Shown here one piece after another: positions 5,345 through 64,000 of a DNA stretch of 64,000 nt. This DNA comes from Balanoglossus misakiensis. Taxonomy: Eukaryota; Animalia; Hemichordata. Each line of letters opens with the position of its first letter. Within the stretch, counting starts at the first letter, position 1. The stretch covers positions 8,631,124 through 8,695,123 of the forward strand of contig CM082596.2 of the NCBI GenBank assembly GCA_040954595.2, given 5' to 3'. The position numbers were made by a program, and so were the translations under genes. The notes under the pieces were generated by a model. That model was not told the origin of the DNA. It saw only the letters and a list, made by a program, of their open reading frames with translations, and did no database searches.

Positions 5345-6237
5345 CAGATTTTTTCCTCTATTTGTTTAAGGAGAAAAAGACAGCAGTGAGCACTATTAAG
5401 GCGTACCGTTCAGCTATAGGTAACACACTTCGATTGTTGGGTGAGGAAGTTACTACCCTGGACGGCTCTATTTCTGCTTTGATTAGTAATTTCTCTTTGG
5501 CGCGACCAGTTGTCAAGTCACTGGTTCCCCAGTGGAGTTTATCTTTGGTTCTACATGCTTTATTAGGAGCTCCATTTGAACCTTTGCAAACAGCAGAGTT
5601 GAAGTTCTTGACGTACAAGACTGTTTTTCTTTTGGCATTAGCTACGGCAGGTCGCCGTAGTGAGCTTCATGCCCTGTCTATGGCTTCAGCTCATATTCGT
5701 TGGTCAGCAGACAGTGTCACTTTGCTTACTGACCCAGCTTTCTTGGCAAAGAATCGGATTGCGGATCTGCCACAATCGCCTCTGGTTATTCCGAAACTGA
5801 CGAAGTTAGTCGGTCAGCGTTCAGAGGATAGGTTGCTCTGTCCTATCAGAGCACTGAAGTATTATTTGCAGAGAACAAAAGACAGGAGGGGAGAGCAGAC
5901 AAGACTGTTTATCTCCATTAGGGTTACACCCAGTATGTCTATTTCACAGGCGACTATTTCCAGATGGATCGTCGAGACTATTAAGTTTGCTTATTCTAGC
6001 CCTTCAGAAGAAGCAATTAACTGGGCTAAGGTGTCAGCTCATGAAGTCAGAGCTCTTGCTGCTTCATGGTCACTTTTTTCAGGGACTTCCATGGCTGATT
6101 TATTGTCTGCAGTCCAGTGGAGATCACAAACTACTTTTTCCTCTGCTTATCTGCGAGATATGGCAGCGGAAGCAGATGGCTTATTTTCCTTGGGTCCTAT
6201 CTGTGTAGCTCAAAGGGTAGCTCACAGTAAGTATTAG
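4912..6237 (+). CDS. DIRS tyrosine recombinase
   Basis: SAM-like N-domain (STTAAYDSKW..F..WC) and catalytic R (GRRSEL), LCP.RAL, HEVR, W-S..TF...Y. Confidence 0.92.
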   Translation: MRRSVNQLEGNVGICISPTTVDLQGNFQGSTRRMRSNSSCTTVANTSLVSKTTPVTGGLSTDITTQLHGGDCSAASGSTTPSLPRLETIKLSLQARGFSAEAASRIAQHRRASTTAAYDSKWCSFRHWCEKRSIDFLRPTPPQLADFFLYLFKEKKTAVSTIKAYRSAIGNTLRLLGEEVTTLDGSISALISNFSLARPVVKSLVPQWSLSLVLHALLGAPFEPLQTAELKFLTYKTVFLLALATAGRRSELHALSMASAHIRWSADSVTLLTDPAFLAKNRIADLPQSPLVIPKLTKLVGQRSEDRLLCPIRALKYYLQRTKDRRGEQTRLFISIRVTPSMSISQATISRWIVETIKFAYSSPSEEAINWAKVSAHEVRALAASWSLFSGTSMADLLSAVQWRSQTTFSSAYLRDMAAEADGLFSLGPICVAQRVAHSKY

Positions 6238-7256: not shown

Positions 7257-9084
7257 TTTAGGAAGTACATTTCAATTTTTGTGACATTGTTCTCATGCTC
7301 CTCCTTCATTACTTACAGAATGGAGACACACCTTTGCACGTTGCAGCAGCGTTTGGTGATGAAGGCCGTGTCAGATTGTTATTGGAACACAAAGTTGATG
7401 TTAACATACAAAACAAGGTAAATACAAACCTGATTTCTACAGGTTATTGCTACTCAACATACAAACATTTGTTTGTTTGTTCTGTTTATTTATTTAAGGA
7501 GATCTCACATTACATTTCAATTTTTGTGACATTGTTCTCATGCTCCTCCTTCATTACTTACAGAATGGAGACACACCTTTGCACTTTGTAGCAAGGTATT
7601 GCGATGAAGGCCGTGTCAGATTGTTATTGGAACACAAAGCTGATGCTAACATACAAAACAAGGTAAATACAAACCTGACTTCTATAGGTTAATTCTAATC
7701 AACAAACAAACAAACATGTATGTGTTTGTTTGTTTGTTTAAGGAAACCTCACATTTATACATTTCAATTTTTGTGACATTGTTCTCATGCTCCTCCTTCA
7801 TTACTTACAGAATGGAGACACACCTTTGCACTTTGCAGCAGCAAGGTTTGGTGGTATCGGTAAAGGCTGTGTCAGATTGTTATTGGAACACAAAGTTGAT
7901 GTTAACATACAAAACAAGGTAAATACAAACCTGACTTCTACAGGTTATTGCTACTCAACATACCAACATTTGTTTGTTTGTTCTGTTTATTTATTTAAGG
8001 AGATCTCACAGTACATTTCAATTTTTGTGACATTTTTCTCATGCTCCTCCTTCATTACTTACAGAATGGAGACACACCTTTGCACTTTGTAGCAAGGGAT
8101 GGCGATGAAGGCCGTGTCAGATTGTTATTGGAACACAAAGCTGATGCTAACATACAAAACAAGGTAAATAAAAACCTGACTTCTATAGGTTAATTCTAAT
8201 CAACAAACAAACATGTATTTGTTTGTTTGTTTGTTTAAGGAAGTACATTTCAATTTTTGTGACATTGTTCTCATGCTCCTCCTTCATTACTTACAGAATG
8301 GAGACACACCTTTGCACGTTGCAGCAGCGTTTGGTGATGAAGGCCGTGTCAGATTGTTATTGGAACACAAAGCTGATGCTAACATACAAAACAAGGTAAA
8401 TACAAACCTGATTTCTACAGGTTATTGCTACTCAACATACAAACATTTGTTTGTTTGTTCTGTTTATTTATTTAAGGAGATCTCACAGTACATTTCAATT
8501 TTTGTGACATTGTTCTCATGCTCCTCCTTCATTACTTACAGAATGGAGACACACCTTTGCACTTTGCAGCAGCAAGGTTTGGTGGTATCGGTAAAGGCTG
8601 TGTCAGATTGTTATTGGAACACAAAGCTGATGCTAACATACAAAACAAGGTAAATACAAACCTGATTTCTACAGGTTATTGCTACTCAACATACCAACAT
8701 TTGTTGGTTTGTTCTGTTTATTTATTTAAGGAGATCTCACATTACATTTCAATTTTTGTGACAATGTTCTCATGCTCCTCCTTCATTACTTACAGAATGG
8801 AGACACACCTTTGCACTTTGTAGCAAGGGATGGCGATGAAGGCCGTGTCAGATTGTTATTGGAACACAAAGCTGATGTTAACATACAAAACAAGGTAAAT
8901 GCAAACCTGACTTCTACAGGTTAATTCTAATCAACATACAAACATTTGTTTGTTTGTAAAAGGAAACCTCAAATTACATGTTAATTTCTGTGACATGATT
9001 ATCATTCTCCTTCTTCATTACTTACAGAAAGGCAATGCAAGATCAATTCCAAAGATGTTAAAACGTTTGATTTTTCTACATTAT

Positions 9085-30754: not shown

Positions 30755-33108
30755 TAAAGCTGCAAGCAGCATTGTCCGGGCCCAAGCTCTATTATCTGAT
30801 CTGATTATTAGATATGCACATAATTAATGAGTAGAAACATAATGCTGTGTTTTATCCCATGAAATATCAAGGTTATATCTTTGTTTGGTGTTGATATAGT
30901 GTAAAGTAGGTCAAAGGTCACCCAGAGGTCACCCACAATTTGGGCAGAAAATTTTGACCCATAGTGGTCCATGTCCAACAAAAACCAGACCTCTAGCCCT
31001 TTTGGTTAGCCCGGAATTACGTATGCACATAAATAATGAGTAAAGCAGGTGTCCCAGGTGACCCAAAACTTTTGCTTTTCATTATGGCCCCATACCTCCA
31101 AACGCCAAGGCTGTATCTGCTGTGGATGTCGAGATATGCAAAAGTAGGTCAAAGGTCATCTGAGGTCACCCAAAATTTGGGCAAAAATTTTGACCCATAG
31201 TGGTCCATGTCCAACAAAAACCAGACCTCTAGCCCTTTTGGTTAGCCCGGAATTAGTTATGCACATAAATAATGCGTAAAGCAGGTGTCACAGGTGACCC
31301 AAAACTTTGGCTTTTCATTATGGCCCCATACCTCCAAATGCCAAGGCTGTACCTACTTTGGATGCCGATATATGCAAAAGTAGGTCAAAGGTCACCCGAG
31401 GTCACCCAACATTTGGGCAGAAAATTTTGACCCATAGTGGTCCATGTCCAACAAAAACCAGACCTCTAGCCATTTTGGTTAGCCCGGAATTAGGTATGCA
31501 CATAAATAATGAGTAAAGCAGGTGTCACAGGTGACCCAAAACTTTGGCTTTTCATTATGGCCCCATACCTCCAAACGCCAAGGCTGTATCTTGTGTGGAT
31601 GTCGAGATATGCAAAAGTAGGTCAAAGGTCACCCGAGGTCACCCAACATTTGGGCAAAATATTTTGACCCCATACTGGTCCATGTATAACAAAAACAAAA
31701 CCTCTAGGTCTATTGGTTCATCTGTAATTAGGTATATGCATATTTAATGAGGTCACCAGAGGTCAAAGGGGTCATGAAAAGTAGCAAAATTTTTTGATCA
31801 CATACAAATCCACATACATCAAAAACCAAACTTATAGCCCTATTGGTTAGCCTGGAATTAGATATGCAGAAAAATGATGCGTCAAAAGTAGGTCAAAGGT
31901 CATTGCCAAAATTACCAAAATATTTATAGGTTATTCTTGTCATATGATGATTCATATCCATAAAAAGAATTTCTGTGCTATCAATTTTTAGGCTAGAAAA
32001 GGAATTTTTACTTTTTAATCGTTTTTCACAAAATCCAATATGGCCGCCATAATCTTCGACCAATCACATTCCCCTTCGCAAACTTGATAGACATCTGTTT
32101 AATGACCACACACACCAAATCTTGTGACTCGGTTATCGCCCGTTCTGGAGGAGAAGATTTTTGAAGTTTTACTATGGTTTTTCGAAAATCCAATATGGCC
32201 GCCATAATCTTCGACCAATCACAATGATCTTCGCAAACTTGATAGACATCAGTTAGGTGACCACATACCCCAAACGGCGTGACTCGGTTATCGCCGGTTC
32301 TGGAGAAGAAGATTTTTGAAATTTTGACCAGATTTCAGAAAAACAACTGTAGCAAAAAAACTGCAACATTGACAGCAAAATATCCAATTACAAAAATGAT
32401 GGGCAGAGGGTATACTACCAGCACGCCAAATCTGAACTCGATCTGACTTGTAGTTTCTGAGATCTGAGATTTGCATTTTTTCAGAAAATCCAATATGGCC
32501 GCCATGTCACGTGACTAATTAAGTATTCACAAGTCACTGCACATCTACTCATTGACCTTGACCACTGTAGCAAGTTTGAGAACTGTACCTGCAGCGGTGT
32601 CTGAGATCTAGAGCGCGAAAGAAGTGAACCAAGAATAAAGAAAGAAAGAAAGAAAGAAAAACCCCAACGAAACCAATACGGGCCCAAGCCTGGCTTGGCT
32701 TGGGCCCGTAAAAAATTCCAACGAAACCAATAGGGCCCAAGCGCTTGCTTGCGCTTGGGCCCTAAAAAACCCCAACGAAACCAATAGGGCCCAAGCGCAA
32801 GCAAGCGCTTGGGCCCTAAAAAACCCCAACGAAACCAATAGGGCCCAAGCGCAAGCAAGCGCTTGGGCCCTAAAAAACCAGGATAATAACAATAGGGCCC
32901 AAGCGCTGCATGCGCTTGGGCCCTAAAAAAAAAAAAAAAAAGTAGAAGAAAAACCAGGATAATACCAATAGGGCCCAAGCGCTGGTATGCGCTTGGGCCC
33001 TAAAAACCAGGATAATACCAATAGGGCCCAAGCGCTGCATGCGCTTGGGCCCTAAAAAACCCCAGTAATACCAATAGGGCACAAGCCTGCTTGGCTTGTG
33101 CCCTAAAA
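19145..33108 (+). mobile_element. Nested stack of nine Helentron-associated (HINE/DINE-1-like) non-autonomous elements
   Basis: 5' ends (TATAGCTGCAAGCAGC or TTAAAGCTGC..GGGCCCAAGC) at ~19145, 20500, 22063, 23542, 25060, 26464, 27889, 29312 and 30752. Each has ~238-bp internal tandem repeats and an AAG/AAAG microsatellite. 3' GGGCCCAAGC..GCTTGGGCCC hairpins: one at 23494-23541 and eight at 32660-33108. No TSDs and no coding capacity. Confidence 0.85.
32660..33108 (+). repeat. Eight consecutive ~54-bp terminal hairpin modules (stacked element 3' ends)
   Basis: CCAATAGGGCCCAAGC-loop-GCTTGGGCCCTAAAAA x8 with variable loops. Confidence 0.92.
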
Positions 33109-33409
33109 ATAGCCTTCCAAAACATAATGAAAGACCACGGAATTCTATTTTGTGGTAACGTTATCAAAAAGTGACTGACCCCCATTAAAATGGAAATGTG
33201 GGTATTGCTGGAGCGCCCTCTGTTATGTAGATTAAGTTTGCTATTGTTTTCGTGACCATGTGTGTTTATCGTTTACTTTAGTAATTTGAATATTTGCGTG
33301 ACCAGGTGTGATGCATTCATTACTTTTCTTGTATAAAAGCGTGCACGTTGCCACGTCTCTGCTGATTTGGACTGGCCCTTGTGAGCTGTGTTCCGTTCCT
33401 CACCGACTT

Positions 33410-33800
33410 GGAAGCTTTGCTGTGTCTCATGTTGTACTGGTCTGGAAGCCGCGCCTAGAAGCCGTGCTGTCTCATGTTGTACTGGTCTGGAAGCCGCGCC
33501 TAGAAGCCGTGCTGTCTCATGTGGAACTGGTCTGGAAGCCGCGCCTAGAAGCCGTGCTGTCTCATGTGGAACTGGTCTGGAAGCCGTGCTGTCTCATGTG
33601 GAACTGGTCTGGAAGCCGCGCCTAGAAGCCGTGCTGTCTCATGTTGTACTGGTCTGGAAGTCGCGCCTAGAAGCCGTGCTGTCTCATGTGGAACTGGTCT
33701 GGAAGCCGCGCCTGGAAGCCGTGCTGTCTCATGTGGAACTGGCCTGGAAGCCGCGCCTAGAAGCCGTGCTGTCTCATGTGGAACTGGTGTGGAAGTCGTG
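33410..33800. repeat. 45-bp minisatellite (GAAGCCGTGCTGTCTCATGTGGAACTGGTCTGGAAGCCGCGCCTA), ~9 copies
   Basis: Direct reading. A two-copy version occurs in the adjacent duplicate at ~34180-34270. Confidence 0.92.
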
Positions 33801-34345
33801 CAGTCTACCGGTGGATTTTGCCAGAGCGCTACTCGGACTGAACGTCGCCGTCGGAACTGTCGCGGTGTTGTCGCGTTCGTCGTAAGCTACGGAACTTTGG
33901 ACTTTAGTCTTACATTTCCACACCTGGTCACATTTAAGGTAGTCACTTATTTTTGTGGGTTTTTTTTTCAGTGTAAAATCATTTCCAAAAGTAAGGAAAT
34001 AACGTGTGGTGTGACTATATCATGTATATTGTTGACCGTCTTTCGTAATTTGAATATTTGCGTGACCAGGTTTGATGCATTGATTACTTTTCTCCTATAA
34101 AAGCGTGCACGTTGCCACGTTGTGCCGTCGCTGCTAATTTGGACTGGTCCGTGTGAGCTGTGTTCCGTTCCTCGCCGGCTTGGAAGCTGTGCCGTATCTC
34201 ATGTGGAACTGGTCTGCGTCTGGAAGCGCCGCGTCTAGAAGCCGTGCTGTCTCATGTGGAACTGGTCTGGACGCCATGCAGTCTACCGGTGGATTTTGCC
34301 AGAGCGCTACTCGGACTGAAGTCGACGTCGGAACCTGTCGCGGTG

Positions 34346-34803
34346 TAGTCTCGGTTACCCAGACGCCTTTGCTCTTCCGATGCTCTCCAGAAAAAGGGTC
34401 TGGGGAAATGCTATTGAAAGCTTTGTAAAACAAAATGGCCGATGTCAGGATTTTGATCATCGCCTGATTGGCTGAACTGTCAGTATGACCCGGGTCACTG
34501 ACTCTCGACAATGTGTGATTATTTGTCGTATCTTCATATCAAGAGACCGGTACTTGTTGGTTGATGCGAAAGGCAAAAGGCGTCCTCTGTTAGCATTGTT
34601 GGAGAAATTATATGAAATATCTTTGGTAGACGATTGTCGAAACTATTGCGGTGACCCGGGTCATACTGACAGCTCAGCCAATCAGGCGATGATCAAAATC
34701 CTGACATCGGCCATTTTGTTTTACAAAGCTTTCAATAGCATTTCCCCAGACCCTTTTTCTGGAGAGCATCGGAAGAGCAAAGGCGTCTGGGTAACCGAGA
34801 CTA
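34346..34803. mobile_element. MITE with ~155-bp TIRs, TAG..CTA termini and 9-bp TSD (AcademH- or MULE-type)
   Basis: TSD GTCGCGGTG at 34337-34345 and 34804-34812. The empty site is present in the sister duplicate at ~33859. Confidence 0.9.
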
Positions 34804-35339
34804 GTCGCGGTGTTGTCGCGTTCGTCGTAAGCTAGTGCTACGGAACATTGGACTTTAGTCTTTCATTTCCACACCTGGTCACATTTAAGGTAGTCTCCTA
34901 TTTTTGTGTTGTTTTTTTTCAGTGTAAAATCATTTTATCTTTATCAATGGTTTAGTTGTAATAATTAAAAGTTTCCATAAGTAAGGAAATAACGTTGTGG
35001 TGTGACTTTTGTTGACCGTCTTGCGACGTCCAGGGACATTTGCATATGATTTATAAGGCTATTCAGATGCTAATTTTTAACTTTGCATATAAATGTTAAT
35101 TTAGGTGCTATGCATTTTTTGTCGTTTTATTGTAAAATAAGAGAAGTCAGTCCTGTTTCAAGAGTCCTTGATCTCACAATTTGTTGTTTTAATATTGACA
35201 GCTTTAGTATTTTCTTCATAGCTTTGATTTAATGACAAATAAAACGTGTGACCTTGATTAAAGAGCAACCTATCGACCAAACCAAACATAAAGTTTTGTT
35301 GAGCTTGATACCGTCCAAAGTTCCGGGCCGACAGCCAAT

Positions 35340-35809
35340 ATCGCTTCTCGGCCTTTTGGCTAAGATCATGTGTTGTACGGCCTTTATGGCTACGATCACG
35401 TTTTCGTACGGCCTTTTTGGCTACGATCATGTTTTCGTACGGCCTTTTTGGCTAGATCATGTTTTGGACGGCCTTTTTGGCTGAGACCATGTTTTCGTAC
35501 GGCCTTTTTGGCTGACACCATGTTTTCGTACGGCCTTTTTGGCTGAGACCATGTTTTGGACGGCCTTTTTGGCTAAGATCATGGCCTTTTTGGCTAAGAT
35601 CATGAGTATGTGTAGATTCGGTTTCGATTTCGGTCATACCCCATCTCAAACAGGAGTATCTGTTCTTATCAGCTTAATATCTGATACGTTGCTCACCGAG
35701 CAGCTCGATATTAAACTGATTTTTGGAAACGGGCCATGGAATAGGGGCTTGCTCCGTCCTGGCCACGGATCGACCTGGTATTGCAGTACCACCAGGAAAC
35801 GGTCCACCT
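35340..35809 (+). ncRNA. RNU2: U2 snRNA gene or pseudogene interrupted at the branch-point recognition region
   Basis: ATCGCTTCTCGGCCTTTTGGCTAAGATCA at 35340-35368. At 35655-35809: AGTATCTGTTCTTATCAG.TTAATATCTGATACG, Sm site GATTTTTGG, GGAATAGG.GCTTGCTCCGTCC and ATCGACCTGGTATTGCAGTACC.CCAGG. Confidence 0.93.
35349..35604 (+). repeat. Nine tandem ~29-31 bp copies of U2 nt ~10-38
   Basis: (C)GGCCTTTTTGGCT.AGATCATGTTTTCGTA units starting at 35349, 35378, 35409, 35440, 35469, 35500, 35531, 35561 and 35583. Confidence 0.92.
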
Positions 35810-36363
35810 CACAAATAAATCAAAAGTAAGACTTAAAAATGATTTCTGAAATGTGGAAAGCACTGAAATTCTCTTCATACCAGTTCTGGTTTTTATATCT
35901 ACATGTGTATGTACCAGAGCAGTTTGCTTCATCTAAATCTTCAAAGCAAGTTTTTTTTTTAACCTCAAAAATTAATAATTGTAGAATGTGTCAAAGCTAT
36001 GGACAGCATAAGAATACCACACCGCGTAAGTAAAAGACGTCGCCGTTCCCTACATCTGATTTTAATCAGATTGTAAAAACCCATGCAACAGCTCCAAATG
36101 TTTGAAATTGGAGTTTAGCATAACATGTAGAAGTACTCGATATATAATCAATAGACCATTTTCCCCGGTTTTTCCGGATTCCAAGAGACACTGCAAGATC
36201 TTGCATGACTAACAAGCACAAAAATTGCGAGTTTTAATTTGTCAAGGCCAAAATAAAAAATATGTGCTAGCTGTTCCATTTACCCGACCTACCCTTATTA
36301 TAACCCGCCGACCCTAAACATTGACAAACAAACAGCAAGGAATGACATTTTTTTAAAAATTTT

Positions 36364-37367: not shown

Positions 37368-38869
37368 TCATGGTCTTTCATTTGAATGGATCCTCATGTG
37401 CCTCTTCTGATGGCCACTCTGTCTAAATGTTTTCCCACATTCTTTACATGCAAATGGTCTTTCATTTGAATGGATCCTCATGTGTTTCTTTAGACCTTCT
37501 CTCCATGTAAATGTTTCCCCACATTCATTGCATTCAAATGGTCTTTCATTTGAATGGATCCTCATGTGGCTCTTCTGATGGCCACTCCGTCTAAATGTTT
37601 TCCCACATTCTTTACATGCAAATGGTCTTTCATTTGAATGGATCCTCATGTGTTCCTTTAGACTGTCTCTCCGTGTAAATGTTTTTCCACATTCATTGCA
37701 TGCAAATAGTCTTTCATTTGAATGGATCCTCATGTGTTCCTTTAGACCGTCTCTCCGTGTAAATGTTTTTCCACATTCATTGCATGCAAATGGTCTTTCA
37801 TTTGAATGGATCCTCATGTGTTTCTTCTGATCGCCACTCCATTTAAATGTTTTCCCACATTCTTTACATGCAAATGGTCTTTCATTTGAATGGGTCTTCA
37901 TGTGTTCCTTTAGACTGTCTCTCCGTGTAAATGTTTTTCCACATTCATTGCATGCAAATGGTCTTTCATTTAAATGGATCCTCATGTGTTCCTTTAGACT
38001 GTCTCTCCGTGTAAATGTTTTTCCACATTCATTGCATGCAAATGGTCTTTCATTTGAATGGGTCTTCATGTGTTCCTTTAGACTGTCTCTCCGTGTAAAT
38101 GTTTTTCCACATTCATTGCATGCAAATGGTCTTTCATTTGAATGGATCCTCATGTGTTCCTTTAGACTGTTTCTCTGTGTAAATGTTTTTCCACATTCAT
38201 TGCATGCAAATGGTCTTTCATTTGAATGGATCCTCATGTGTTCCTTTAGACTGTTTCTCTGTGTAAATGTTTTTCCACATTCATTGCATGCAAATGGTCT
38301 TTCATTTGAATGGGTCTTCATGTGTTCCTTTAGACTGTCTCTCCGTGTAAATGTTTTCTCACATTCTTTACATGCAAATGGTCTATCATTTGAATGGATC
38401 CTCATGTGTTCCTTTAGACTGTCTCTCCGTGTAAATGTTTTTCCACATTCATTGCATGCAAATGGTCTTTCATTTAAATGGATCCTCATGTGTGTCTTCT
38501 CATCGCCACTCCATCTAAATGTTTTTCCACATTCTTTACATGCAAATGGTCTTTCATTTGAATGGATCCTCATGTGTTTCTTCTCATCGCCACTCCATTT
38601 AAATGTTTTCCCACATTCTTTACATGCAAATGGTCTTTCATTTGAATGGGTCTTCATGTGTTTCTTTAGACTCCCTCTCCGTCTAAATGTTTTCCCACAC
38701 TCTTCAAGTACTAACCATCTTCGGCCCTGTCCACTGTTGCAATCGTGATGCAACATGTCTGATCCACCAAGTTCTTGACCATGTTCAACATGTTGACTGC
38801 TGACATCATCCAGTAGGCTCACTTGAATATGGCCAGAGTGTGCCAGAGTCTGGATTATCAGTGATACAT
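37368..38869 (-). CDS. C2H2 zinc-finger array exon, copy A (15 complete + 1 partial finger)
   Basis: 84-bp repeats encoding FACxECGKTF-x6[12 protein letters not shown]. Phase-1 acceptor (TTTTGTTATCATCCAACAG on the minus strand) at 38870, with the frame open to TGA at 37368. Confidence 0.88.
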
Positions 38870-39082
38870 CTGTTGGATGATAACAAAACAGCTACTTAAA
38901 TACAGGCTTCAAGCACACTTAATAAGTAACATTACTACTGATTACCAATCACATCGTCTCAGGGTGTCAGGAGACAGATTCCCTCTTCTGAACCCTCCCC
39001 CCCCCCCACACACACACCCTTTAACGTTGCCGGCTAATGGCTGATGCCCATCTTGAGATAGGTTATACTGAAGATAACTTAA

Positions 39083-39701
39083 AGGGGAAATCCGCTGTAG
39101 CTGATTTCTACATAATTTGGTAGCTTTGATGTCTCTCTTTCAGAAAAAAACATATTCGCCATGTATAGGTCGCGCGATTTTTTACAAAATCTAGGGAAAA
39201 TTGGCAGAATTTCCAATATGGCGTTTACTGTAATTTGAATCATGGGAAAAAAAGCGCCAGGACCAACTTCCGCCCACCTTGGTGTGGGTGATACCATTTT
39301 CCGATTGGTGTCACTGTGTCACAAGCTAAGCGTATTTGCATATTTTTCATGGGTTATAGCTCATGAAAACTGTCAATAGATGACAAATTTTCGACTTTGC
39401 TGATGATTGTTTATCAACTGATGCAAAGAACAAACAATAGCTATGAAAATACGCCTAGTCTGTCGCCCAGTGACACCAATCGGAGAATGGTATCACCCAC
39501 ACCATGGTGGGCGGAAGTTGCTCCTGGCGCTTTTTTTCCCATGATTCAAATTACAGTAAACGCCATATTGGAAATTCTGCCAACTTTCCCTAGATTTTGT
39601 AAAAAATCGCGCGACCTATACATGGCGAATATGTTTTTTTCTGAAAGAGAGACATCAAAGCTACCAAATTATGTAGAAATCAGCTACAGCGGATTTCCCC
39701 T
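39083..39701. mobile_element. Kolobok-type MITE with long TIRs, TTAA TSD
   Basis: TTAA|AGGGGAAATCCGC...GCGGATTTCCCCT|TTAA with TIRs over 230 bp. Empty site at ~56008 in copy B. Confidence 0.9.
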
Positions 39702-41890: not shown

Positions 41891-43131
41891 ACTGCAAGCA
41901 GTAACAAGCTTTGATTTTTGGGAGTAGGTGATTCACACTTTAAAACAAAGCCTAGGCTATCGACTAGCATCCAACTTTGTTTCAATGTATTTGTATGACA
42001 TTATTGTTCAAAATTCGAAGAAAAAGCTCAGCACACAACATATTTTTCTTCGAATTTTCATCTCGCCCACCAGATTATAGCCCTGTTCGTGACGTCACAC
42101 CGCGCGCGGACAAGAATACGTCTGAATGTTTGACAGACTCGAATTATCAAACTCAAGAGTAACATATGCAATGATGGACACATACCAGCTCTTGTCAAGT
42201 GGTTGCAAATTACGGATGATCTTGGTGTGGCATCCATTTGGTTTCCACTTTTCGACAACGCACTCTGGAGCGTGTTGACTTCCTCCATTTTACTCTTGAA
42301 ATGTTTCGAGTACTGAAGTTAGTGTCGGTTTCGGTTTCGGATTCATTTTCGGATTCGGGTTCGAGAGACTGAAAGTTACAGCATTTTCGCATTTTCGGGC
42401 GACCATCGCGGTTTGGCATCTGCAGTACAAGTATGAAAATAACTCTGTAAAAAATATGGATATAACTCTCTCGACATGTTATGTATGATAATTTTGGCAC
42501 CAAAACTCTGTTTTTTTACATCGGAAATTGTTAAATACATATTTTATCATCGAAAAACATACTTCGATGATAAAAAGATAATATTTTGTAATTTTCGGCT
42601 TGAATAAATATTGTTTGGGTGAGAAAAATGTCATACATAACAACTATCAGCGGTGGGGATTGGGGTCAGGGAACCAGACTAGTACATGTATCATTCAACT
42701 CGACGATACTGAAATAAGCCTCGGATTCGGTTTCAGTTTCGGATTCGGAATCGGTTTCGAGAGACTGAAAATTTCGAGGGCATCTGCGTACGAGTGATAG
42801 AGTGTGGGACTGGGGGCCTCGACATGTGTTTGACTCTCGCTTGGGATTCTCCCTGTATTGAGGGTTGAGGGCGCCAGACAGGGGTCGGGGGTCAACGGCA
42901 GATCTGGGGTTCCACGAGGCAAGGGTTTCTTGTGTATGTACCGTACGTGAGGCAGCGAGATAAACAATACAACCTCTTGTTCGTGAGACGTCGTCCCCGT
43001 GTGCTTATATTAATCAACATTAACACTGGTGGCAGCGGTGGGATCAAGCATACATCGTGGTGAGCTGAGGAACTGACGTTAAATTGAACTTTAATTTTGG
43101 AACATCGTACTGTAGTTTTCCGAGAAACAAG

Positions 43132-44019
43132 ATGGCGTCCAATGTTGTGCCATGGGATGGTAGCGACAATACAAAAATCGAAAGCCACATCAGTCAAGTC
43201 GAGGCTTATTTTACGGCCAAAGGAATCGAGGATGAAACAAAGAAGGTAGCGTTCCTTCATTTTTCACTGAAGGGTGAAGCAAAAGACTACTTCACTGAGT
43301 TACAACAAAACCAACGTGATACGTTTGCTCATGCTGCACAGGCTTTGAAGGACCGTTTTAAGAAATTGAAAACATCAATCCACTATCAACGTGAGCTGGC
43401 AGAACGTAAACAGAAAGTTGGGGAAACTGTCCATGAGCTGAAGTTTGCCATCCTTACTCTCGTGTCACGTGCCTATCCTACAGTTAAGGATTTGGATGCT
43501 GTTCAAGCTTTAGCAGTGGCCCATTTTCGTACTGCCCTACATGCTGACATTGGTACTAAGTTGGACTGGGTCACAGATGAAAAGGCAACCTTAGATGATC
43601 TAACAGCGAAAGCAGCCCAGATAGAAAGAGATGTGACTGTTAGAGTTGTCACAACTTCCGAAAACGAAAGCAATATTGAGGCTGGGGATAACGCAGTTTT
43701 AAACGATGTAGTACAGAAATTGGAAGAATTGACCACGGGACAGCAGCAACTGGCCAGCACAGTAGCAACTATTCAGACCCAAGTAACAAATAGAGGAAGA
43801 GGTCGCGGTCGAGGAAGAGGGAGAGGTGTTTCAGGATCCTGTTTTGTCTGCGGTCAACCCGGACACTTTGCTCGCAACTGCATGTATAATGCCAATGCAC
43901 AAGCCAGAATTCCAGGCCGTGGTTTTGCAGGTCGGTGTCACCGTTGTCAACAGCTGGGTCATCGTGCAGCTGAGTGTACAGCCCCAAGTCCTGTTTCTAC
44001 AATTCCGGGAAACTTCTAG
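43132..44019 (+). CDS. gag: Gypsy Gag with RG-rich tract and two CCHC knuckles
   Basis: CFVCGQPGHFARNC and CHRCQQLGHRAAEC, plus an MHR-like QKVGETV motif. Confidence 0.92.
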   Translation: MASNVVPWDGSDNTKIESHISQVEAYFTAKGIEDETKKVAFLHFSLKGEAKDYFTELQQNQRDTFAHAAQALKDRFKKLKTSIHYQRELAERKQKVGETVHELKFAILTLVSRAYPTVKDLDAVQALAVAHFRTALHADIGTKLDWVTDEKATLDDLTAKAAQIERDVTVRVVTTSENESNIEAGDNAVLNDVVQKLEELTTGQQQLASTVATIQTQVTNRGRGRGRGRGRGVSGSCFVCGQPGHFARNCMYNANAQARIPGRGFAGRCHRCQQLGHRAAECTAPSPVSTIPGNF

Positions 44020-44555
44020 TGGCTGGGGGAGAAGGTCAGTCTTCCCCAGCTCATCCTGAAATGACCAAACCCATCGTATCTGTTGCTGGACTTGCACAAC
44101 CACTGCCAAATGGGATTGAAATACAAGGACAGATCGGGGGAAAGAAATTTACCTGGTTACTTGATACAGGGGCACAAATCAGTGTAGTTGTCGATTCCTT
44201 GGTCAAAGGAGCAAACGGAACATTTGCACCAGCACTCTATGCACCACAGGGAGCCAATGGGTCAGACCTAGGGACAGTATGTGACATCATCACTGATTGT
44301 GAAATTGGTAACCATGCAGTAAAGCAACATAGATTCACTGTTGTCAGGCAGTCAACTTACCCAGCAATAATTGGGATGGACCTCTTTCCATCACTACCAG
44401 TGCATCTTTCAATAGGAAAAGATGTTTACTACGACTCTACACAGTCTACAAATAGAAATTTCACAAGAGGTGTTGCCCAAGCTCCATATCATGAACAACG
44501 TTCTGCCCGTCCCATGGTATGTCGTATTCATGCAGCAAATACAGTCAATATTTAA
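44007..44555 (+). CDS. pro: Gypsy aspartic protease reached by -1 frameshift
   Basis: LLDTGAQISV and IIGMD motifs. Slippery site G GGA AAC at 44007-44013. The frame ends at TAA 44555, out of frame with RT. Confidence 0.85.
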   Translation, partial: GKLLVAGGEGQSSPAHPEMTKPIVSVAGLAQPLPNGIEIQGQIGGKKFTWLLDTGAQISVVVDSLVKGANGTFAPALYAPQGANGSDLGTVCDIITDCEIGNHAVKQHRFTVVRQSTYPAIIGMDLFPSLPVHLSIGKDVYYDSTQSTNRNFTRGVAQAPYHEQRSARPMVCRIHAANTVNI

Positions 44556-47500
44556 GTATGTGTGTAGTTCAAGGTAAACTGGTGGATGATATAAAGCGTG
44601 GAACTCAAGGAATTGTAGAGTCAGCAGGAGAAGAAGGATCAGAACGCATGGGAGTCGGATGTGGCCGAGTTCTTGATGCGGTGCGAGACAATGGAACAGT
44701 ATTGATGCATATGACGAATCCTTCAAATTCGACTTGCAAAATTGTTGCTGGCTCTATCATAGGCATGTTTACTGCAGGTGCAGAAGATGTGCAGACAAAA
44801 CAGATTGCAACAATGACCAAACAGATGGGCAAGGGTGACTTTACCCAGAAGCGCAGAGAAACGGCAAGAGATGAAATGTCGCGTGCTTTTGCGAATGAGT
44901 CTGATGTGGCCCCGAACGAGAAACATCGATTGTATAAGGTGATACATTCGTATGCTGACATATTTTCATTAGATGGGGAAATGGGTCTCACAGACCGCAT
45001 TGAACATTATATACCAACAGGTTCAGCAGCACCTGTTTCACAACAACCACGACGGATACCGTTCCACCGAATGGCAGAAGTGGAGCAGTTCGTGAATGAC
45101 AGTCTACAGGATGGGGTGATCAGACCAAGCAGTAGTCCGTGGTCCAGCCCCCTGGTGCTAGTAAAGAAAGCAGACGGAAATACAAGATTTTGTGTTGACT
45201 TTCGCCGACTTAATGACTTAACAGTTGGGGATTCATTTCCAATCCCGAGAGTGGACGACAGCCTAGCAGCCCTATCAGGAAGTCGTATCTATACAACCAT
45301 CGACCTTTCGCGGGGATTTTGGCAGGTACCAGTGAATGAGGCAGACCGACCGAAAACTGCGTTTACCTGTCACAAAGGCCTCTTTGAATTTAACACTATG
45401 CCATTTGGTCTTAAGGGAGCGCCAGCGACGTTCCAGAGACTAATGACATCACTTCTCAGTGATCTCAACTGGGAATTTGTACTCATCTATTTAGATGATA
45501 TTCTGGTCTATTCTCGCAGCTTTGATGAACACCTCGAACACCTCAAGATTGTGTTCGAGAAACTCCGCGCTGCTGGTTTGAAATTGAACATTAAGAAGTG
45601 TAAATTTGCTCGCAGACAAGTCAAATATTTGGGGTATAGGATCACGGAAGCAGGTGCCCACCCAGATCCAGACAAAGTAAGTTCAATTGTTGACTACCCT
45701 CGGCCAGCAACAGTACCCGAGCTTCGGCGTTTCATAGGTATGGCATCCTATTATCGGAGATTTATTGAGAAGTTTTCAAGCATTGCACATCCTTTGAATG
45801 AACTCACCCAAAAGAATACAACTTTTCAATGGAATGATGCTTGCCAACATGCTTTTGAGACACTCAAGACAAAGCTTGCTACAGCTCCAGTGCTAGCACA
45901 TCCATCTTTTCAAGAGGAATTTACTGTTGAAACAGATGCCAGTGACATTGGTATTGGGGCAGTTCTTGCTCAAAATGGACATGTCATTGAATACGCTTCC
46001 AGATCACTCAATCAAGCTGAGAAAAATTACTCCGCCACTGAGAAGGAATGCCTCGCGATCGTCTGGGCACTGGACAAATTCGGAATGTACTTGCAGGGAC
46101 GGCGTTTCACAGTGATCACAGACCACAAGCCACTTACCTACTTGCTACAACTCAGAGAACCTAGAGGTAAATTAGCACGGTGGCGTATTGCACTAGAGAA
46201 CTTTGATTTCACAATATCACATCGCCCCGGCGCAAAAATGGTCGTGGCAGACGCTCTTTCCCGATCTCCACAAGTAAATGCAGTCACACTTACAGGTTTG
46301 TGGTCTGTTCAGGAACTAGCCAGTCTGCAACAATGTGATCAGGACATTCAGATTATGCGCACATGGGTGACAACACACCGCAAACCCCCTAACATACCGG
46401 GACATGTCAACAGCTTCCTGAAGACAAAGGGAGGCTGTCTACGCATACAGGATGGACTTCTTGTACTCACAAGTGAATTAGACGGTAGAATAGTTCAGCA
46501 AACTGTGATTCCTCGCAAGGAAGCTGAACGCGTCCTGTGTGCACTTCATGATGATCAGGGACACTTTGGGCCGGAGAAGACACGAGCTGCTATCAGGTCA
46601 CGATATTTCTGGTTTAATTGGCAAAAAGATGTTCGATCATGGTGCCGCTCCTGCGAAGTTTGCTTGAAACGAAAAACCCCAACTGTGCCAGACCACCCAC
46701 CGATTGGTGAGTTGCCAGTACCACAGGAGCCACTGAAGTGGTGGCACATGGACTTTGCCGGCCCTTTGCCAAAGACTGCCAGGGGAAATCGTTACATTTT
46801 CTCTCTGACAGATCCTTTGAGCAAATGGGTTGAAGCCTTTGCGGTGCCAGATGAAACCGCCTTGACCACAGCAGGAATTGTGTATGATGAAATAGTGTGT
46901 CGCTTTGGGGTTCCAGAAGGACTACATTCCGATCAAGGTCGAAACTTTGAGGCCCACATCATGCAGGAATTGTCACATCGCCTGGGTATCAAACGCTCGC
47001 GTACTTCGCCGTTTAACCCGTGTTGTAACGGACAGGTTGAACGAATGAATAAAACAATGGCTGAACGTCTAGCAATGTTAATTGATGCAGAAGACCAAAC
47101 CGACTGGGATGAAAAGCTCCCCACAGCCCTGTTTGCTATCCGTTCCATGCAGAATGCCACAACAAAGGAATCTCCCTTCAAAGTTTTATTCGGCTGTGAA
47201 CCTCGCAACAAAGTTGACTTTCTCTCGACTATGCCCCCAACCAGCAGGGGAGGGAGAGGTGTAGAGCAGTTCGCAAAGAGACTCGACAATCTCCAAAGAG
47301 TCCATGAATCGGTCAGAAGCAAGATACTGACAGAGCATGAGATGCGTCAACAAAGACAACAGGCAAAGACTCGGTTTTCTCCGTTCTCAGAGGGAGACAA
47401 GGTTTGGGTCTATTATCCTCGACGACAAAGGGGTGCTTCCAAGAAACTGACGTCAGAACGATGGAGAGGCCCATATCTTATCAGTGGGAGGATTGGCGAG

Positions 47501-47869
47501 ACCACTTACAAATTGCAGCCAGTGGGCGGTCACCGTCATAGAGGGAGCAAGATTGTAAACCACAGACGTCTGAAGAGACATTGGGAAAGGCCAGCACATC
47601 TTTCGGTGTGCTATACTGACAGTCAGTCTGATGAAGAAGTCCAAAACGAGTCCGAGGAAGTTCAAAACTTGAATGCCGAACTCATGAATAACTTGAGCCC
47701 TGTGGATTCGGAGGATGACACCAGTATCCATGACCCTGTCACTGAGGAAAATAATACAGGATTTAATCAGGAAATTGTGCGTCGATCACAGCGGACTCGA
47801 GTTCAGCCACATTGGCATGATGACTATGACATGAGCAATGACTGTGACTCATCAGGAAGCGAGGAATAA
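44519..47869 (+). CDS. pol: Gypsy Pol: RT, RNase H, integrase
   Basis: RFCVDFR, MPFGL, YLDD. RNase H: TDAS, EKECLA, TDH. Integrase: HHCC, D,D(35)E (MDF, SDQG, VER), GPY motif. Confidence 0.96.
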   Translation: MSYSCSKYSQYLSMCVVQGKLVDDIKRGTQGIVESAGEEGSERMGVGCGRVLDAVRDNGTVLMHMTNPSNSTCKIVAGSIIGMFTAGAEDVQTKQIATMTKQMGKGDFTQKRRETARDEMSRAFANESDVAPNEKHRLYKVIHSYADIFSLDGEMGLTDRIEHYIPTGSAAPVSQQPRRIPFHRMAEVEQFVNDSLQDGVIRPSSSPWSSPLVLVKKADGNTRFCVDFRRLNDLTVGDSFPIPRVDDSLAALSGSRIYTTIDLSRGFWQVPVNEADRPKTAFTCHKGLFEFNTMPFGLKGAPATFQRLMTSLLSDLNWEFVLIYLDDILVYSRSFDEHLEHLKIVFEKLRAAGLKLNIKKCKFARRQVKYLGYRITEAGAHPDPDKVSSIVDYPRPATVPELRRFIGMASYYRRFIEKFSSIAHPLNELTQKNTTFQWNDACQHAFETLKTKLATAPVLAHPSFQEEFTVETDASDIGIGAVLAQNGHVIEYASRSLNQAEKNYSATEKECLAIVWALDKFGMYLQGRRFTVITDHKPLTYLLQLREPRGKLARWRIALENFDFTISHRPGAKMVVADALSRSPQVNAVTLTGLWSVQELASLQQCDQDIQIMRTWVTTHRKPPNIPGHVNSFLKTKGGCLRIQDGLLVLTSELDGRIVQQTVIPRKEAERVLCALHDDQGHFGPEKTRAAIRSRYFWFNWQKDVRSWCRSCEVCLKRKTPTVPDHPPIGELPVPQEPLKWWHMDFAGPLPKTARGNRYIFSLTDPLSKWVEAFAVPDETALTTAGIVYDEIVCRFGVPEGLHSDQGRNFEAHIMQELSHRLGIKRSRTSPFNPCCNGQVERMNKTMAERLAMLIDAEDQTDWDEKLPTALFAIRSMQNATTKESPFKVLFGCEPRNKVDFLSTMPPTSRGGRGVEQFAKRLDNLQRVHESVRSKILTEHEMRQQRQQAKTRFSPFSEGDKVWVYYPRRQRGASKKLTSERWRGPYLISGRIGETTYKLQPVGGHRHRGSKIVNHRRLKRHWERPAHLSVCYTDSQSDEEVQNESEEVQNLNAELMNNLSPVDSEDDTSIHDPVTEENNTGFNQEIVRRSQRTRVQPHWHDDYDMSNDCDSSGSEE

Positions 47870-54882: not shown

Positions 54883-55796
54883 TCATGGTCTTTCATTTGA
54901 ATGGATCCTCATGTGGCTCTTCTGATGGCCACTCCGTCTAAATGTTTTCCCACATTCTTTACATGCAAATGGTCTTTCATTTGAATGGATCCTCATGTGT
55001 TTCTTTAGACTGTATCTCCATGTAAATGTTTTTCCACATTCATTGCATGCAAATGGTCTTTCATTTGAATGGATCCTCATGTGGCTCTTCTTAGTGCCAC
55101 TCCGTGTAAATGTTTTCCCACATTCTTTACATGCAAATGGTCTTTCATTTGAATGGGTCTTCATGTGTTTCTTTAGACTCCCTCTCCGTCTAAATGTTTC
55201 CCCACATTCATTGCATTCAAATGGTCTTTCATTTAAATGGATCCTCATGTGGCTCTTCTGATGGCCACTCCGTCTAAATGTTTTCCCACATTCTTTACAT
55301 GCAAATGGTCTTTCATTTGAATGGATCCTCATGTGTTCCTTTAGACTGTCTCTCCGTGTAAATGTTTTTCCACATTCATTGCATGCAAATAGTCTTTCAT
55401 TTGAATGGATCCTCATGTGTTTCTTCTTATCGCCACTCCATCTAAATGTTTTTCCACATTCTTTACATGCAAATGGTCTTTCATTTGAATGGATCCTCAT
55501 GTGTTTCTTCTGATCGCCACTCCATTTAAATGTTTTCCCACATTCTTTACATGCAAATGGTCTTTCATTTGAATGGATCCTCATGTGTTCCTTTAGACTG
55601 TCTCTCCGTCTAAATGTTTTCCCACACTCTTCAAGTACTAACCATCTTCGGCCCTGTCCACTTTTGCAATCGTGATGCAACATGTCTGATCCACCAAGTT
55701 CTTGACCATGTTCAACATGTTGACTGCTGACATCATCCAGTAGGCTCACTTGAATATGGCCAGAGTGTGCCAGAGTGTGGATTATCAGTGATACAT
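54883..55796 (-). CDS. C2H2 zinc-finger array exon, copy B (8 complete + 1 partial finger)
   Basis: Same 84-bp repeat, same acceptor (55797) and same stop context as copy A. Confidence 0.88.
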
Positions 55797-56220
55797 CTGT
55801 TGGATGATAACAAAACAGCTACTTAAATACAGGCTTCAAGCACACTTAATAAGTAACATTACTACTGATTACCAATCACATCGTCTCAGGGTGTCAGGAG
55901 ACAGATTCCCTCTTCTGAACCCCCCCCCCCCCCCCCACACACACACCCTTTAACGTTGCCGGCTAATGGCTGATGCCCATCTTGAGATAGGTTATACTGC
56001 AGATAACTTAAGCAATCATGTATGAGCAGACTGATTATTTGTTGATGTACTGAACTATTGGCAAAGAATGATCACAACAATGGTGTGATTGACTTCAAGG
56101 GAATACCCCCTTTCAATTTGTATACATCACCTTTCTCCAAAGGGAAAGCTTTGTTTTGTTTCAAGAGACAAGAAACAGCAGGACTAGTAATATGTAACAA
56201 AAGAGATTATGCTTGCTTAC

Positions 56221-56831: not shown

Positions 56832-59800
56832 GAGGGAAACATGCTGGTCATCATTCAGAATCTTTAAATTCTGACTGGCCAAACCCCACACATATCTGTT
56901 GCATATTTTTTTAAAACTCTAAAGCCATTTTTTTCAAGCTGGTTAAAAAAACAACTGAAGACTTTATGGGGGATATTCCCTGTGGAAAAGCGCATATACT
57001 TGGATCTTTTCGATGCTTGGTGCATGTGTTGAGCAAAACCAGAGTCCCTATATCACAAGGTCATGAAACAAAGTTGGATGCTAGTCTATAGCCTAGGCTT
57101 TGTTTTAAAGTGTGAATCACCTACTCCCAAAAATCAAAGCTTGTTACTGCTTGCAGTCAAGTGACACCTACCATAGACAGTAGAGGGGGTAACAGGAAAT
57201 ACCATTTCAGATAATTTGCTTATGTAGATGTACATGGTGACTAAATCAGATAGGTTGCCAAATTGAACTTGAAGAGACAGTCACTTTTTAGGATTTTTTA
57301 GGATTTCCAGACGACACCCCATTCACCTTCAAACCTTGCAGAAGTATAATATGAACAGACTCAGGGTTTTCGCTAAGCGCTTGCGTACTTGCACTGAACT
57401 GGCCGTCTACTTTTCCTTAACCCATTAGGGTTATTTTTATTTTTATACTCTTTCACGCTCATAAATAAGGGTTCGTACGCTCCTGGAAACTCCTGGAATT
57501 TGAAACCCCTCCTGGAAACTCCTGAAAATTCAAAATTTCTCCTTGAAACTTGAAAACCGCGAGTCACGATCGCATTTCACCGGATCGTGAAACAGTACGC
57601 GTTGCCCATTTCACTCAGCGCACCAGTTATCTTTAGACATGCGTCCTATAAATAGTATCATTGACGTAGTAACGCACAAATTGCAACAACTAACGCAGCT
57701 CATCGTTCCGGTCGCAACAAAATATCTAAAACTTGACAAAAGATGTAGCAACTTTTGTTAGAGGTCATCCGCGCGTCTGCAGAATACTTGTACAGACGGC
57801 CGCGGCAGACACCCGTGAGATCGATGTTCAGGGCAATTAGTGATGTCAAAAAGAAGCAAAAAAGGCAGGCGTTTTTTGTGTTTTTTTTCAGCAGCAGAAC
57901 AGTAATTTCCATCAGTAATTTGTCGATTTTATCAGGACAGAAATCATTGCTTTAGGGCCCGTTCAGTTTTTACGGCCGAGAGGGGGGTCAAAGGTCAACA
58001 TGATGGGGGGTCAAAGGTCAACATGTCCCCGGCCCCGCATAATTGGCCCCCTACTTTGCCAATATGGCCCTCTACTTCAAATTTTAGCGAAACCCCTGAC
58101 TGTAACAGTCTTGTATTATTAAGCCAATTTTGGCATCTGCAGTACGAGTATGAAAATAACTCTGTAAAAAAATATGGATATATTTGATCAAACTCTCTCG
58201 ACATGTTATGTATGATAATTTTGGCACCAAAACACTGTTTTTCACATTGGAAATTGTTAAATACATATTTTATCATCGAAAAACATACTTCGATGATAAA
58301 AAGATAATATTTTGTAATTTTCGGCTTGAATAAATATTGTTTGGGTGAGAAAAATGTCATACATAACAAGTATCAGCGGTGGGGATTGGAGTCAGGGAAA
58401 CAGACTAGTATCATTCAACTCGGCGATACTGAAGTAAGCCTCGGATTCGGTTTCAGTTTCGGATTTAGAATCGGTTTCGAGAGACAGAAAATTTGGAGGG
58501 CATCTGCGTACGAGTATGAAAATTACTTTGCTAAAACACCAATAAATTTGATTTGTGTGTGAGTCTATCTAAAACACACTGGGTATGGTGACCAGGCTAC
58601 ACCTTGGCACATACACCGAGAATAGCCAAGACAGAGAAAAGAACAGCAAAAAAGATCACCAAAGCTAAAAACAGCGCCTAAACTCTATGTCTGATTTTAA
58701 TCTGATTGCCGTCAACCCTGAGTGAACTCCAGCAGTGCCATGATACGCTGACAATAACATGAATTCAATCACACATTTTGTTGTACAGTTTTTTTCAGTT
58801 AGAGAAGGATGGGTAACATTGTCAATATAATCTTACAGACCATTCCCTTTACCTCTAGTATACCTAATTATGGAAATCGAGAAAAGAAACTATTCAAATT
58901 CCTTAGCACCTTCAAAGTTCCATGAGGCGACTAAAATCGGTCAACTGTTTAGATTTACATAAACACTTTATCATTTACATGTTCTGTAATTTGATGTTAT
59001 ATGCTTTGGATTATGAAATTGATATTCAAGAGGAATACTTTGAATCAATGCCAGGGTTTTGGCCAAGTGGTTGGGTGCCATTTTCCTTGTAGTATGATTA
59101 TGTTTAAAGTCCACAGCAATGCAAAAACATAGGGCCAGGGGCACCAAAGTCCTATATGGATGGTGCTGCAAAGAAATATAGTCTTCTACCGATTAATCTC
59201 TACAAGTTTATTTCTATGGCTAAAGACCATCTTCCATGAAATACATGAAGAGAGACCTGAATGGTCGACATTAGCAATCCTGAGGCTGTTGTATATGGAT
59301 CAAACTACTTTTTCAAAAACAAAATTATAATAACTTACACATACAAAATGAAATCCCAACACAATAAAGTGTGGCAACACAATTTATTAAAGTTGAATAA
59401 ACAGAAACAAGTCTTTCCAATTTTCAAGCGGGGGAATAAATAATCTTACACTAGCTGCATGCCAAGTTGGCGGTGACAAAAATGCGATTTCAACATGAAA
59501 ACAAACTGAGAATCTTCAAACGGATAATACAGGTATTCTCAGCAATATCGTATTGAAAGAGTTCATATATATACCACAATATTTACACTGATCTGATGAC
59601 AGTAAATATAAATAGCAGCTGCTGTACAAAAGTGGTCTTTTTCTTTGATATTTCAAAATGACTGACATGAAGTGCGCCCTCATATGATGGCTACGCATGA
59701 CTGATAACATTCATTGGAAAATACTTCAGAAACTACATTTGTATTGATAAGTCACATTCTGCAGAAAGATAACAAAATCAATGCTAGCTTCTAGCAAATA

Positions 59801-62855: not shown

Positions 62856-62975
<120 letters not shown>

Positions 62976-62991
62976 CTAACTGCCACTCCAT

Positions 62992-64000
62992 TTAAATGTT
63001 TTTTCCACATTCATTGCATGCAAATGGTCTCTCATTTGAATGGATCCTCATGTGGCTCTTCTGATGGCCACTCCATCTAAATGTTTTCCCACATTCTTTA
63101 CATGCAAATGGTCTTTCATTCGAATGGATCCTCATGTGTTCCTTTAGACTGTCTCTCCGTGTAAATGTTTTTCCACATTCATTGCATGCAAATGGTCTTT
63201 CATTTGAATGGATCCTCATGTGTCTCTTCTTAGTGCCACTCTTTGTAAATGTTTTTCCACATTCTTTGCATGCAAATGGTCTTTCATTTGAATGGATCCT
63301 CATGTGGCTCTTCTGATGGCCACTCCGTCTAAATGTTTTCCCACATTCTTTACATGCAAATGGTCTTTCATTTGAATGGGTCTTCATGTGTTTCTTTAGA
63401 CTCCCTCTCCGTCTAAATGTTTCCCCACATTCTTTACATGTAAATGGTCTTTCATTTGAATGGATCCTCATGTGTTTCTTTAGACTGTCTCTCCATGTAA
63501 ATGTTTTTCCACATTCATTGCATGCAAATGGTCTTTCATTTGAATGGATCCTCATGTGTTTCTTTAGACTGTCTCTCGATGTAAATGTTTTTCCACATTC
63601 ATTGCATGCAAATGGTCTTTCATTTGAATGGATCCTCATGTGGCTCTTCTGATGGCCACTCCGTCTAAATGTTTTCCCACATTCTTTACATGCAAATGGT
63701 CTTTCATTTGAATGGATCCTCATGTGTTCCTTTAGACTCTCTCTCCGTGTAAATGTATTTCCACATTCATTGCATGCAAATGGTCTTTCATTTGAATGGA
63801 TCCTCATGTGTCTCTTCTTAGTGCCACTCTTTGTAAACGTTTTTCCACATTCTTTGCATGCAAATGGTCTTTCATTTGAATGGATCTTCATGTGTTTCTT
63901 CTGATCGCCACTCCATTTAAATGTTTTCCCACATTCTTTACATGCAAATGGTCTTTCATTTGAATGGGTCTTCATGTGTTCCTTTAGACTCCCTCTCCGT
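62992..64000 (-). CDS. C2H2 zinc-finger array, copy C (at least 11 complete fingers, partial at the window edge; frameshift at ~63000 and a decayed tail to ~62895)
   Basis: Same 84-bp repeat. An extra T in the T-run at 62999-63004 ends the frame, and the following finger contains a stop. Confidence 0.85.
   Translation of the reverse strand, partial: RRGSLKEHMKTHSNERPFACKECGKTFKWSGDQKKHMKIHSNERPFACKECGKTFTKSGTKKRHMRIHSNERPFACNECGNTFTRRESLKEHMRIHSNERPFACKECGKTFRRSGHQKSHMRIHSNERPFACNECGKTFTSRDSLKKHMRIHSNERPFACNECGKTFTWRDSLKKHMRIHSNERPFTCKECGETFRRRGSLKKHMKTHSNERPFACKECGKTFRRSGHQKSHMRIHSNERPFACKECGKTFTKSGTKKRHMRIHSNERPFACNECGKTFTRRDSLKEHMRIHSNERPFACKECGKTFRWSGHQKSHMRIHSNERPFACNECGKNI

Follow-up and report, generated by a model that had tools for sequence, protein, structure and literature searches.

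How does a U2 snRNA gene come to be split by copies of its own stem I, and is the result a damaged gene, a homing element or a working variant? The animal U2 gene that raises this question starts at position 35340 and ends at position 35812 of the window (the whole stretch of DNA that was analysed, 64 kb long). Its split structure is real and unusual.

Anatomy of the split U2 gene and its surroundings

The gene consists of U2 nt 1–38, eight more stem-I copies, a scrambled nt 31–39, 39 foreign bases and U2 from nt 35 to its end. An earlier note on this DNA had described a U2 gene split by a tandem array of its own stem I. Mapping bears this out: the eight extra copies start at 35379, 35410, 35441, 35470, 35501, 35532, 35562 and 35583, and TRF agrees (period 31, 7.7 copies, 89% matches, score 337). 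The features are:

35274..35294, + strand: candidate proximal sequence element (-66 to -46), tentative, from its position and loose likeness to the presumed vertebrate consensus
35340..35377, + strand: U2 nt 1–38 (copy 0), exact to nt 29, with nt 30 and nt 35 changed
35378..35469, + strand: array copies 1–3 (U2 nt 10/11–38), first higher-order block
35470..35561, + strand: array copies 4–6, second higher-order block, with 83 of 90 aligned bases the same as in copies 1–3
35562..35604, + strand: array copies 7 and 8, short (U2 nt 11–30/31), identical over 21 nt
35605..35615, + strand: scrambled branch-point segment, U2 nt 35–39 followed by nt 31–36
35616..35654, + strand: foreign insert, 39 nt, with poly(A) and AATAAA both absent
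35655..35812, + strand: U2 nt 35 to the 3′ end, stems IIa, IIb, III and IV intact, compensatory pair 35769/35803
35719..35726, + strand: Sm-binding site, from the RF00004 alignment
35823..35831, + strand: 3′-box-like motif, tentative, fitting what we take to be the AAARNNAGA half of the consensus

The 5′ end had been called perfect. This holds up to nt 29, since nt 1–29, including stem I, agree with intact control U2 genes, and fails at nt 30 and nt 35, the two positions at which copy 0 departs from the intact U2 of one fetched locus; copy 0 was also compared by eye with human U2 as printed in S1 Fig of PMC4640811. The stem I arms are unchanged in all nine copies, as the earlier note had it (P about 0.01–0.03 for 11–15 events, in a test chosen post hoc). 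The branch-point segment (nt 33–38), said to be mutated in every copy, is changed in all seven full copies and missing altogether from the last two, which are 21–22 nt each, and nowhere in the gene is a continuous stretch of nt 33–38 plus stem IIa left. The suggestion of multiplied U6-pairing modules is only partly upheld, the alignment giving an exact nt 20–29 in three of nine copies. The foreign insert, put at ~50 bp, shrinks to 39 bases, because the 11 bases before it are U2-derived (35605–35609 are U2 nt 35–39 and 35610–35615 are U2 nt 31–36). U2 resumes after the insert at nt 35, four bases before nt 39.

The 3′ portion is intact as claimed, with its end at 35812 and not at 35809. Alone it scores 126.5 bits against RF00004 (E 2.7e-25), and the Sm site and stems IIa, IIb, III and IV of a functional U2 are all present. 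It keeps 71 of 73 conserved columns, 29 of which were fixed by the search pattern, leaving 44 informative ones. The two departures form one A–T pair (35769/35803), which is G–C in 62 of 69 distinct controls.

No poly(A) tail or target-site duplication was seen by eye around the U2 gene. The 3′-box-like motif falls within 19 nt of the RNA end, where a 3′ box is expected (PMC3874203). The absence of these two retrocopy marks and the presence of the motif suggest that the split U2 is a gene locus rather than a retrocopy.

In the window there are ankyrin repeats, exons for C2H2 zinc fingers and two mobile elements, one of Gypsy type and one DIRS-like. Rfam E-value scans, with a 41-base gap between the two ranges scanned, gave no further fragment of U2 or of another snRNA. 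The Gypsy-type LTR retrotransposon (43069–47869) has separate reading frames for gag, protease and RT-RNase H-integrase, the last of 1124 aa; the DIRS-like element (3431–6237), with an RT and a weak match to a tyrosine-recombinase N-domain, is flanked by two arrays of a 245-bp ankyrin exon–intron unit (1730–3013 and 7264–8957). Tandem C2H2 zinc-finger exons form a minus-strand cluster (37368–38891, 54883–55818 and 62902–63998) whose homologues are generic and none of them close, with at most 49% identity among the 120 matches listed. Nearer to the gene, a MITE-like element (34346–34803) with 153-nt inverted arms, 99% complementary, lies ~540 nt upstream. It belongs to one copy of a local duplication of ~770–950 bp upstream of U2 (33276–34016 and 34040–35007), and the other copy holds a 45-bp minisatellite (33423–33795). 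An array of 53–54-bp units, each with a 34-nt near-palindrome, occupies 32657–33109, and a long hairpin at 39236–39548 is probably a MITE (sub-threshold MIR821 match).

Descent of the copies and origin of the insert

The same 5-nt loop is common to all eight extra copies and the change at nt 30 to all nine. Copies 1–3 and 4–6 form a 91-bp higher-order repeat (83/90 aligned bases identical), and in the alignment copy 6 is a copy-4-type front joined to a copy-3-type tail. Judged from these shared derived changes and the higher-order repeat, the copies arose from one another through duplication and exchange within the locus. This rules out that each of the nine was captured separately from an intact gene, or that the target was struck in succession, since fresh copies of intact genes would have no derived changes in common. 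The earlier proposal that repeated target cleavage or abortive priming made each copy is not supported, given the same shared loop, nt 30 change and 91-bp repeat. Like those of a U2-derived satellite, the tandem units are derived from U2 and amplified from one another; no second such array was found in the 64-kb window.

Array copies 1–6 differ from intact U2 by 6–7, at most 8, events per 28 nt. Perfecting of the hairpin in each unit, by selection or by quasi-palindrome correction, was simulated as a cause of these changes and was not significant: stabilisation by the observed mutations compared with random ones gave P 0.06–0.07 per unit and 0.09–0.46 across the array (600 simulations each). 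The folding z-score of the array (-5.7) was set aside as a signal, being inherited from stem I.

The well-diverged array stands beside a 3′ half that has not decayed, which does not fit a dead gene. On a neutral clock at 10%, 73 untouched columns would have P 0.0007 and the 44 informative columns P about 0.01; comparing only copy 0 with the 3′ half gives no significant difference (Fisher P 0.12). Either mutation has run much faster in the repeats, or conversion has kept the U2 parts fresh, or the middle predates the gene that hosts it, or the RNA is under selection. A dead-gene reading therefore has to suppose that the repeats mutate faster or that intact paralogues have converted the U2 parts.

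Over its first ~19 nt the insert is similar to a dispersed repeat found in the window at 42724 and 58444 (2 mismatches each). The 19-mer has 3 further matches in the window against 0.02 expected, these being copies of one repeat family with a low-complexity motif, and the likeness lends modest support to a possible capture from the genome. The dispersed repeat itself is ~370 bp long (42300–42790 and 58127–58520), and it is its short-motif-rich end that resembles the insert. Allowing 3 mismatches, the right half of the insert matches nowhere else in the window, the insert pattern has 0 matches in the metagenome contigs, and its fold shows nothing of note (z 0.2). A 6-bp direct repeat (35604–35609/35654–35659) was considered as the target-site duplication of a 44-nt DNA element and rejected because the supposed element would begin with U2 nt 31–36.

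Read evidence came from run X1, whose contigs were matched to the insert only and which may be the source of the window DNA itself; runs X2 and X3 did not cover the insert, a result that carries no weight. One 119-nt contig, at a depth of 37.3, contains the insert with 0 differences and extends past both of its ends; if collinear it covers 35554–35672. Both of its end 30-mers are unique in the window. Its right end lies 12 nt short of the point at which a single insert would run into ordinary U2 genes, given an assembly k of 31, which we assume. The contig ends hint that the cassette end exists in a second version, in the simplest case the other allele and possibly a paralogue. Many identical element ends are argued against because the contig is unbroken inside the insert.

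The target site, control loci and competing explanations

The junctions in the gene run from U2 nt 38 to 10, from 30 to 11 (twice), from 31 to 35, from 39 to 31, and from 36 through the insert to 35. Every new junction leaves or rejoins U2 within nt 30–39; a single junction would do so by chance with P about 0.05, and the junctions are not independent. This is where U2 genes are disrupted by Keno (Tx1 clade, APE) or Utopia (NeSL clade, RLE) retrotransposons, commonly where such elements live (PMC4640811; PMC6136364). The 3′ flanks of both begin at U2 nt 39 (PMC4640811), and PMC6136364 gives the Keno site, second-hand, as 37 nt into U2; Keno is recorded from vertebrates, lancelet and cnidarians (PMC4494074). 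With the unit ending at nt 38 and the 3′ half resuming at nt 35–39, the earlier placing of the array at the Keno/Utopia position is supported. At the 3′ junction, where U2 identity starts from nt 35, the nt 39 site fits if the last four bases belong to the insert.

No such element lies close by. At the split U2 an ORF with RT plus APE or RLE is absent, the insert being 39 nt, and the two RTs of the window are Gypsy- and DIRS-like. No remnant of a non-LTR element turned up near the U2 gene in the range from 25.8 to 43 kb, and 0 of 34 stop-free frames of at least 75 aa had a Pfam match, frames in three tandem or target ranges being excluded. By eye the insert has no likeness to the published Keno/Utopia ends in three of the eight parts of S1 Fig of PMC4640811. 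The lesion works like a scar at a Keno/Utopia site and is a member of neither family.

Controls were at least 122 U2 loci from metagenome contigs, fetched with an exact 29-nt piece of the 3′ half; 42 of the loci had at most 300 nt of flank, and 118 were scorable (at least 40 nt upstream). The 5′ end is intact in 101 of those fetched and lacking in 17, and the other 4 fall below the length needed for scoring. None of the 118 scorable loci has a second stem-I-like copy upstream. A35 is kept in 100 scorable loci of the 101 intact ones, and a T just before nt 31 is found in 2. Foreign DNA is joined at nt 35–39 in 14 of the 118 (L001, L032, L036, L047, L049, L066, L068, L071, L077, L081, L084, L100, L106 and L115), so the site is struck often in nature; four of the 14 keep nt 35/36–38 like the split U2. 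AATAAA is present within one mismatch at 12 of these junctions and exactly at 8. All but one of the 14 pass the Rfam U2 threshold, nine of them at 104–140 bits, and a clean 3′ half is thus normal behind such junctions. No likeness was found between the insert and the 17 control 5′ ends, one of which lies just above the 95th percentile of shuffles.

The foreign DNA of the 14 junction controls is mostly A/T-rich and 3′-UTR-like, and lies upstream of U2 nt 39; that of L077 ends in a 5-nt tandem tail. The longest frames within reach are 55–114 aa. These genes likely carry Keno/Utopia copies. The remaining three of the 17 controls without an intact 5′ end comprise one adapter-like end, which we take to be a library adapter, and two that keep part of nt 22–38. 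Further damage near the same site (U2 nt 18–38) is seen in L087, where part of nt ~18–30 is lost, and in L024, which has the same nt 35 change as the split U2 behind a foreign 5′ end.

The reading to which we give about an even chance is that of a disabled U2 gene in which one break at the retrotransposon target was followed by templated end joining and then by minisatellite expansion. A single break near nt 30–39 would have started the lesion, the cut likely being made by a Keno- or Utopia-type endonuclease, which is the least certain step. Templated end joining would have patched the break, recopying nt 10–38, nt 11–30 and nt 31–39 and capturing in the same repair a short piece of a genomic repeat. 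The unit would then have grown by local duplication and exchange as a minisatellite, and the gene would have lost its function. A single break with repair of the SD-MMEJ type is proposed because several short copies lie near one point together with a captured fragment. The signature of such repair is short copies taken from within ~30 nt of the break and primed at small hairpins or direct repeats (PMC5728401), and the short copies within ~30 nt of one point, with the captured fragment, appear to fit it. The internal microhomology of U2 (2–3 nt, nt 7–10 against nt 39–41) could also seed the unit without a cut.

That last point leads to a rather unlikely competitor, in which a redundant U2 gene was altered by replication slippage and unequal exchange alone, no element takes part and the match to the Keno/Utopia site is coincidental. 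The stem I hairpin and short microhomologies would destabilise nt 10–39, and microhomologies are indeed present at most junctions (nt 7–10/39–41; nt 11/31; nt 29–30/38–39 after the nt 30 change). The surrounding 3 kb has several unrelated minisatellites as well as the local duplication, and the absence of a non-LTR remnant nearby (25.8–43 kb) speaks for slippage too. However, the microhomology route requires one extra base loss to reach the observed unit end, the capture of 39 foreign bases at the same spot is unaccounted for, and none of the 118 control loci shows such slippage. We consider it improbable that the array and the 39-nt tail form an old, non-autonomous U2-homing cassette, transcribed from the U2 promoter with U2 letters flanking it on either side and copied into further U2 genes by a borrowed Keno/Utopia protein. 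Such a protein-free U2 parasite would be the counterpart of R2 SIDEs for snRNA genes, built from target sequence instead of element sequence, and the altered branch-point segment in each unit would shield it from re-cutting. It would account for an aged middle between a perfect nt 1–29 and a pristine 3′ half, and both of its ends are at the target site. One Utopia end published in PMC4640811 is C-rich and has no AATAAA. The second junction version implied by the X1 contig ends also favours the cassette, yet it is most simply the other allele, and the contig is unbroken through the insert, with no second contig matched (the filter can drop contigs). The cassette further has no tail, against the AATAAA of most control junctions, and its insert is unlike the control ends and finds nothing in the metagenome.

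An expressed U2 variant under selection, an Sm-bound RNA of ~470 nt acting as decoy or regulator without branch-point pairing, is quite improbable in our view. In its favour are an intact Sm site, 3′ stems that are all preserved and include one compensatory pair, stem arms that are invariant in all nine copies, and flanks that are promoter-like and 3′-box-like by the consensus sequences assumed above. The whole RNA is predicted to fold with stem I repeated and with stems IIb and IV and the inner part of stem III still formed, but without stem IIa. The compensatory pair may be no more than what U2 normally has in this species, the bases for helix I, under the pairing scheme that we presume, are broken in copies 4–6, and the mutations are not significantly stabilising. 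It is very unlikely that the middle is a spliceosomal intron gained by reverse splicing, of the kind seen in snRNA genes of fungi, in which 35375–35653 (279 nt) would be removed to leave a near-U2 with an altered branch-point segment. The insert does end in CAG after a short pyrimidine run, splicing would free the middle to diverge, and of 60 GT–AG removals the best comes close to U2 (49 of 50 identities), leaving one mismatch and 2 inserted nt in the branch-point segment. None of the 60 restores an intact U2, all of them altering nt 31–36. The donors match 2–5 of 9 positions of what we take to be the donor consensus, the needed one matching 4 of 9, no better than its competitors in the array. 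Introns in U2 are known from a yeast, a fungal example (PMC5855946). An assembly artefact is barely credible: assembly is difficult for tandem repeats next to a multicopy gene, and the window may itself derive from X1, but the copies are structured and diverged instead of identical, and the separately assembled X1 contig spans both ends of the insert at good agreement (0 differences).

If the disabled-gene reading is true, the locus is a minor but tidy record of the aftermath of a break at a U2 retrotransposon target, and possibly an early stage of U2-derived satellites such as U2_sat of Ciona; no model is changed. Should the cassette recur in several U2 genes, it would be a new non-autonomous, self-protecting homing element of snRNA genes. 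Were the gene transcribed, its product would be a naturally occurring U2 in which the U6-pairing modules are multiplied and pairing with the branch point is lost, and it would offer a ready way to see whether RNAs of this kind poison splicing or tune it.

Comparison with known systems

In the open-access literature, as seen in listings and the starts of abstracts, no report was found of a stem-I minisatellite within a U2 gene. The closest relatives are U2 genes disrupted by Keno or Utopia, which are likewise split at nt 35–39 with an intact 3′ half. Unlike them, the split U2 is without an RT ORF, a tail or a match to an element end, and its filler is mostly its own stem I in a diverged array. 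U2_sat of Ciona, a U2-derived satellite tied to the Utopia-related YURE elements (PMC4640811), is also a tandem repeat from the 5′ part of U2. The U2_sat stretch displayed in PMC4640811 runs from nt 1 past stem IIa with the branch-point segment intact, whereas the split-U2 unit is ~30 nt long without an intact branch-point segment, and its array interrupts a single gene that is otherwise whole.

R2 SIDEs, which are copied into 28S genes, serve as a model of how a short insert without coding capacity could home into an RNA gene of many copies by borrowing a protein; as described in PMC3414825 they carry the 5′ ribozyme and 3′ UTR of their parent and exist in many copies, and neither is seen at the split U2. 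The crocodilian SINEU elements share the repeated 5′ addition of U1/U2-derived pieces and are Tx1-dependent, but they are dispersed, poly(A)-tailed, high-copy and not within U2 genes (PMC4494074). The scars left by SD-MMEJ were obtained as fresh plasmid junctions in fly embryos, whereas the split U2 is an aged locus with later amplification; both are made of short nearby copies added in several rounds (PMC5728401).
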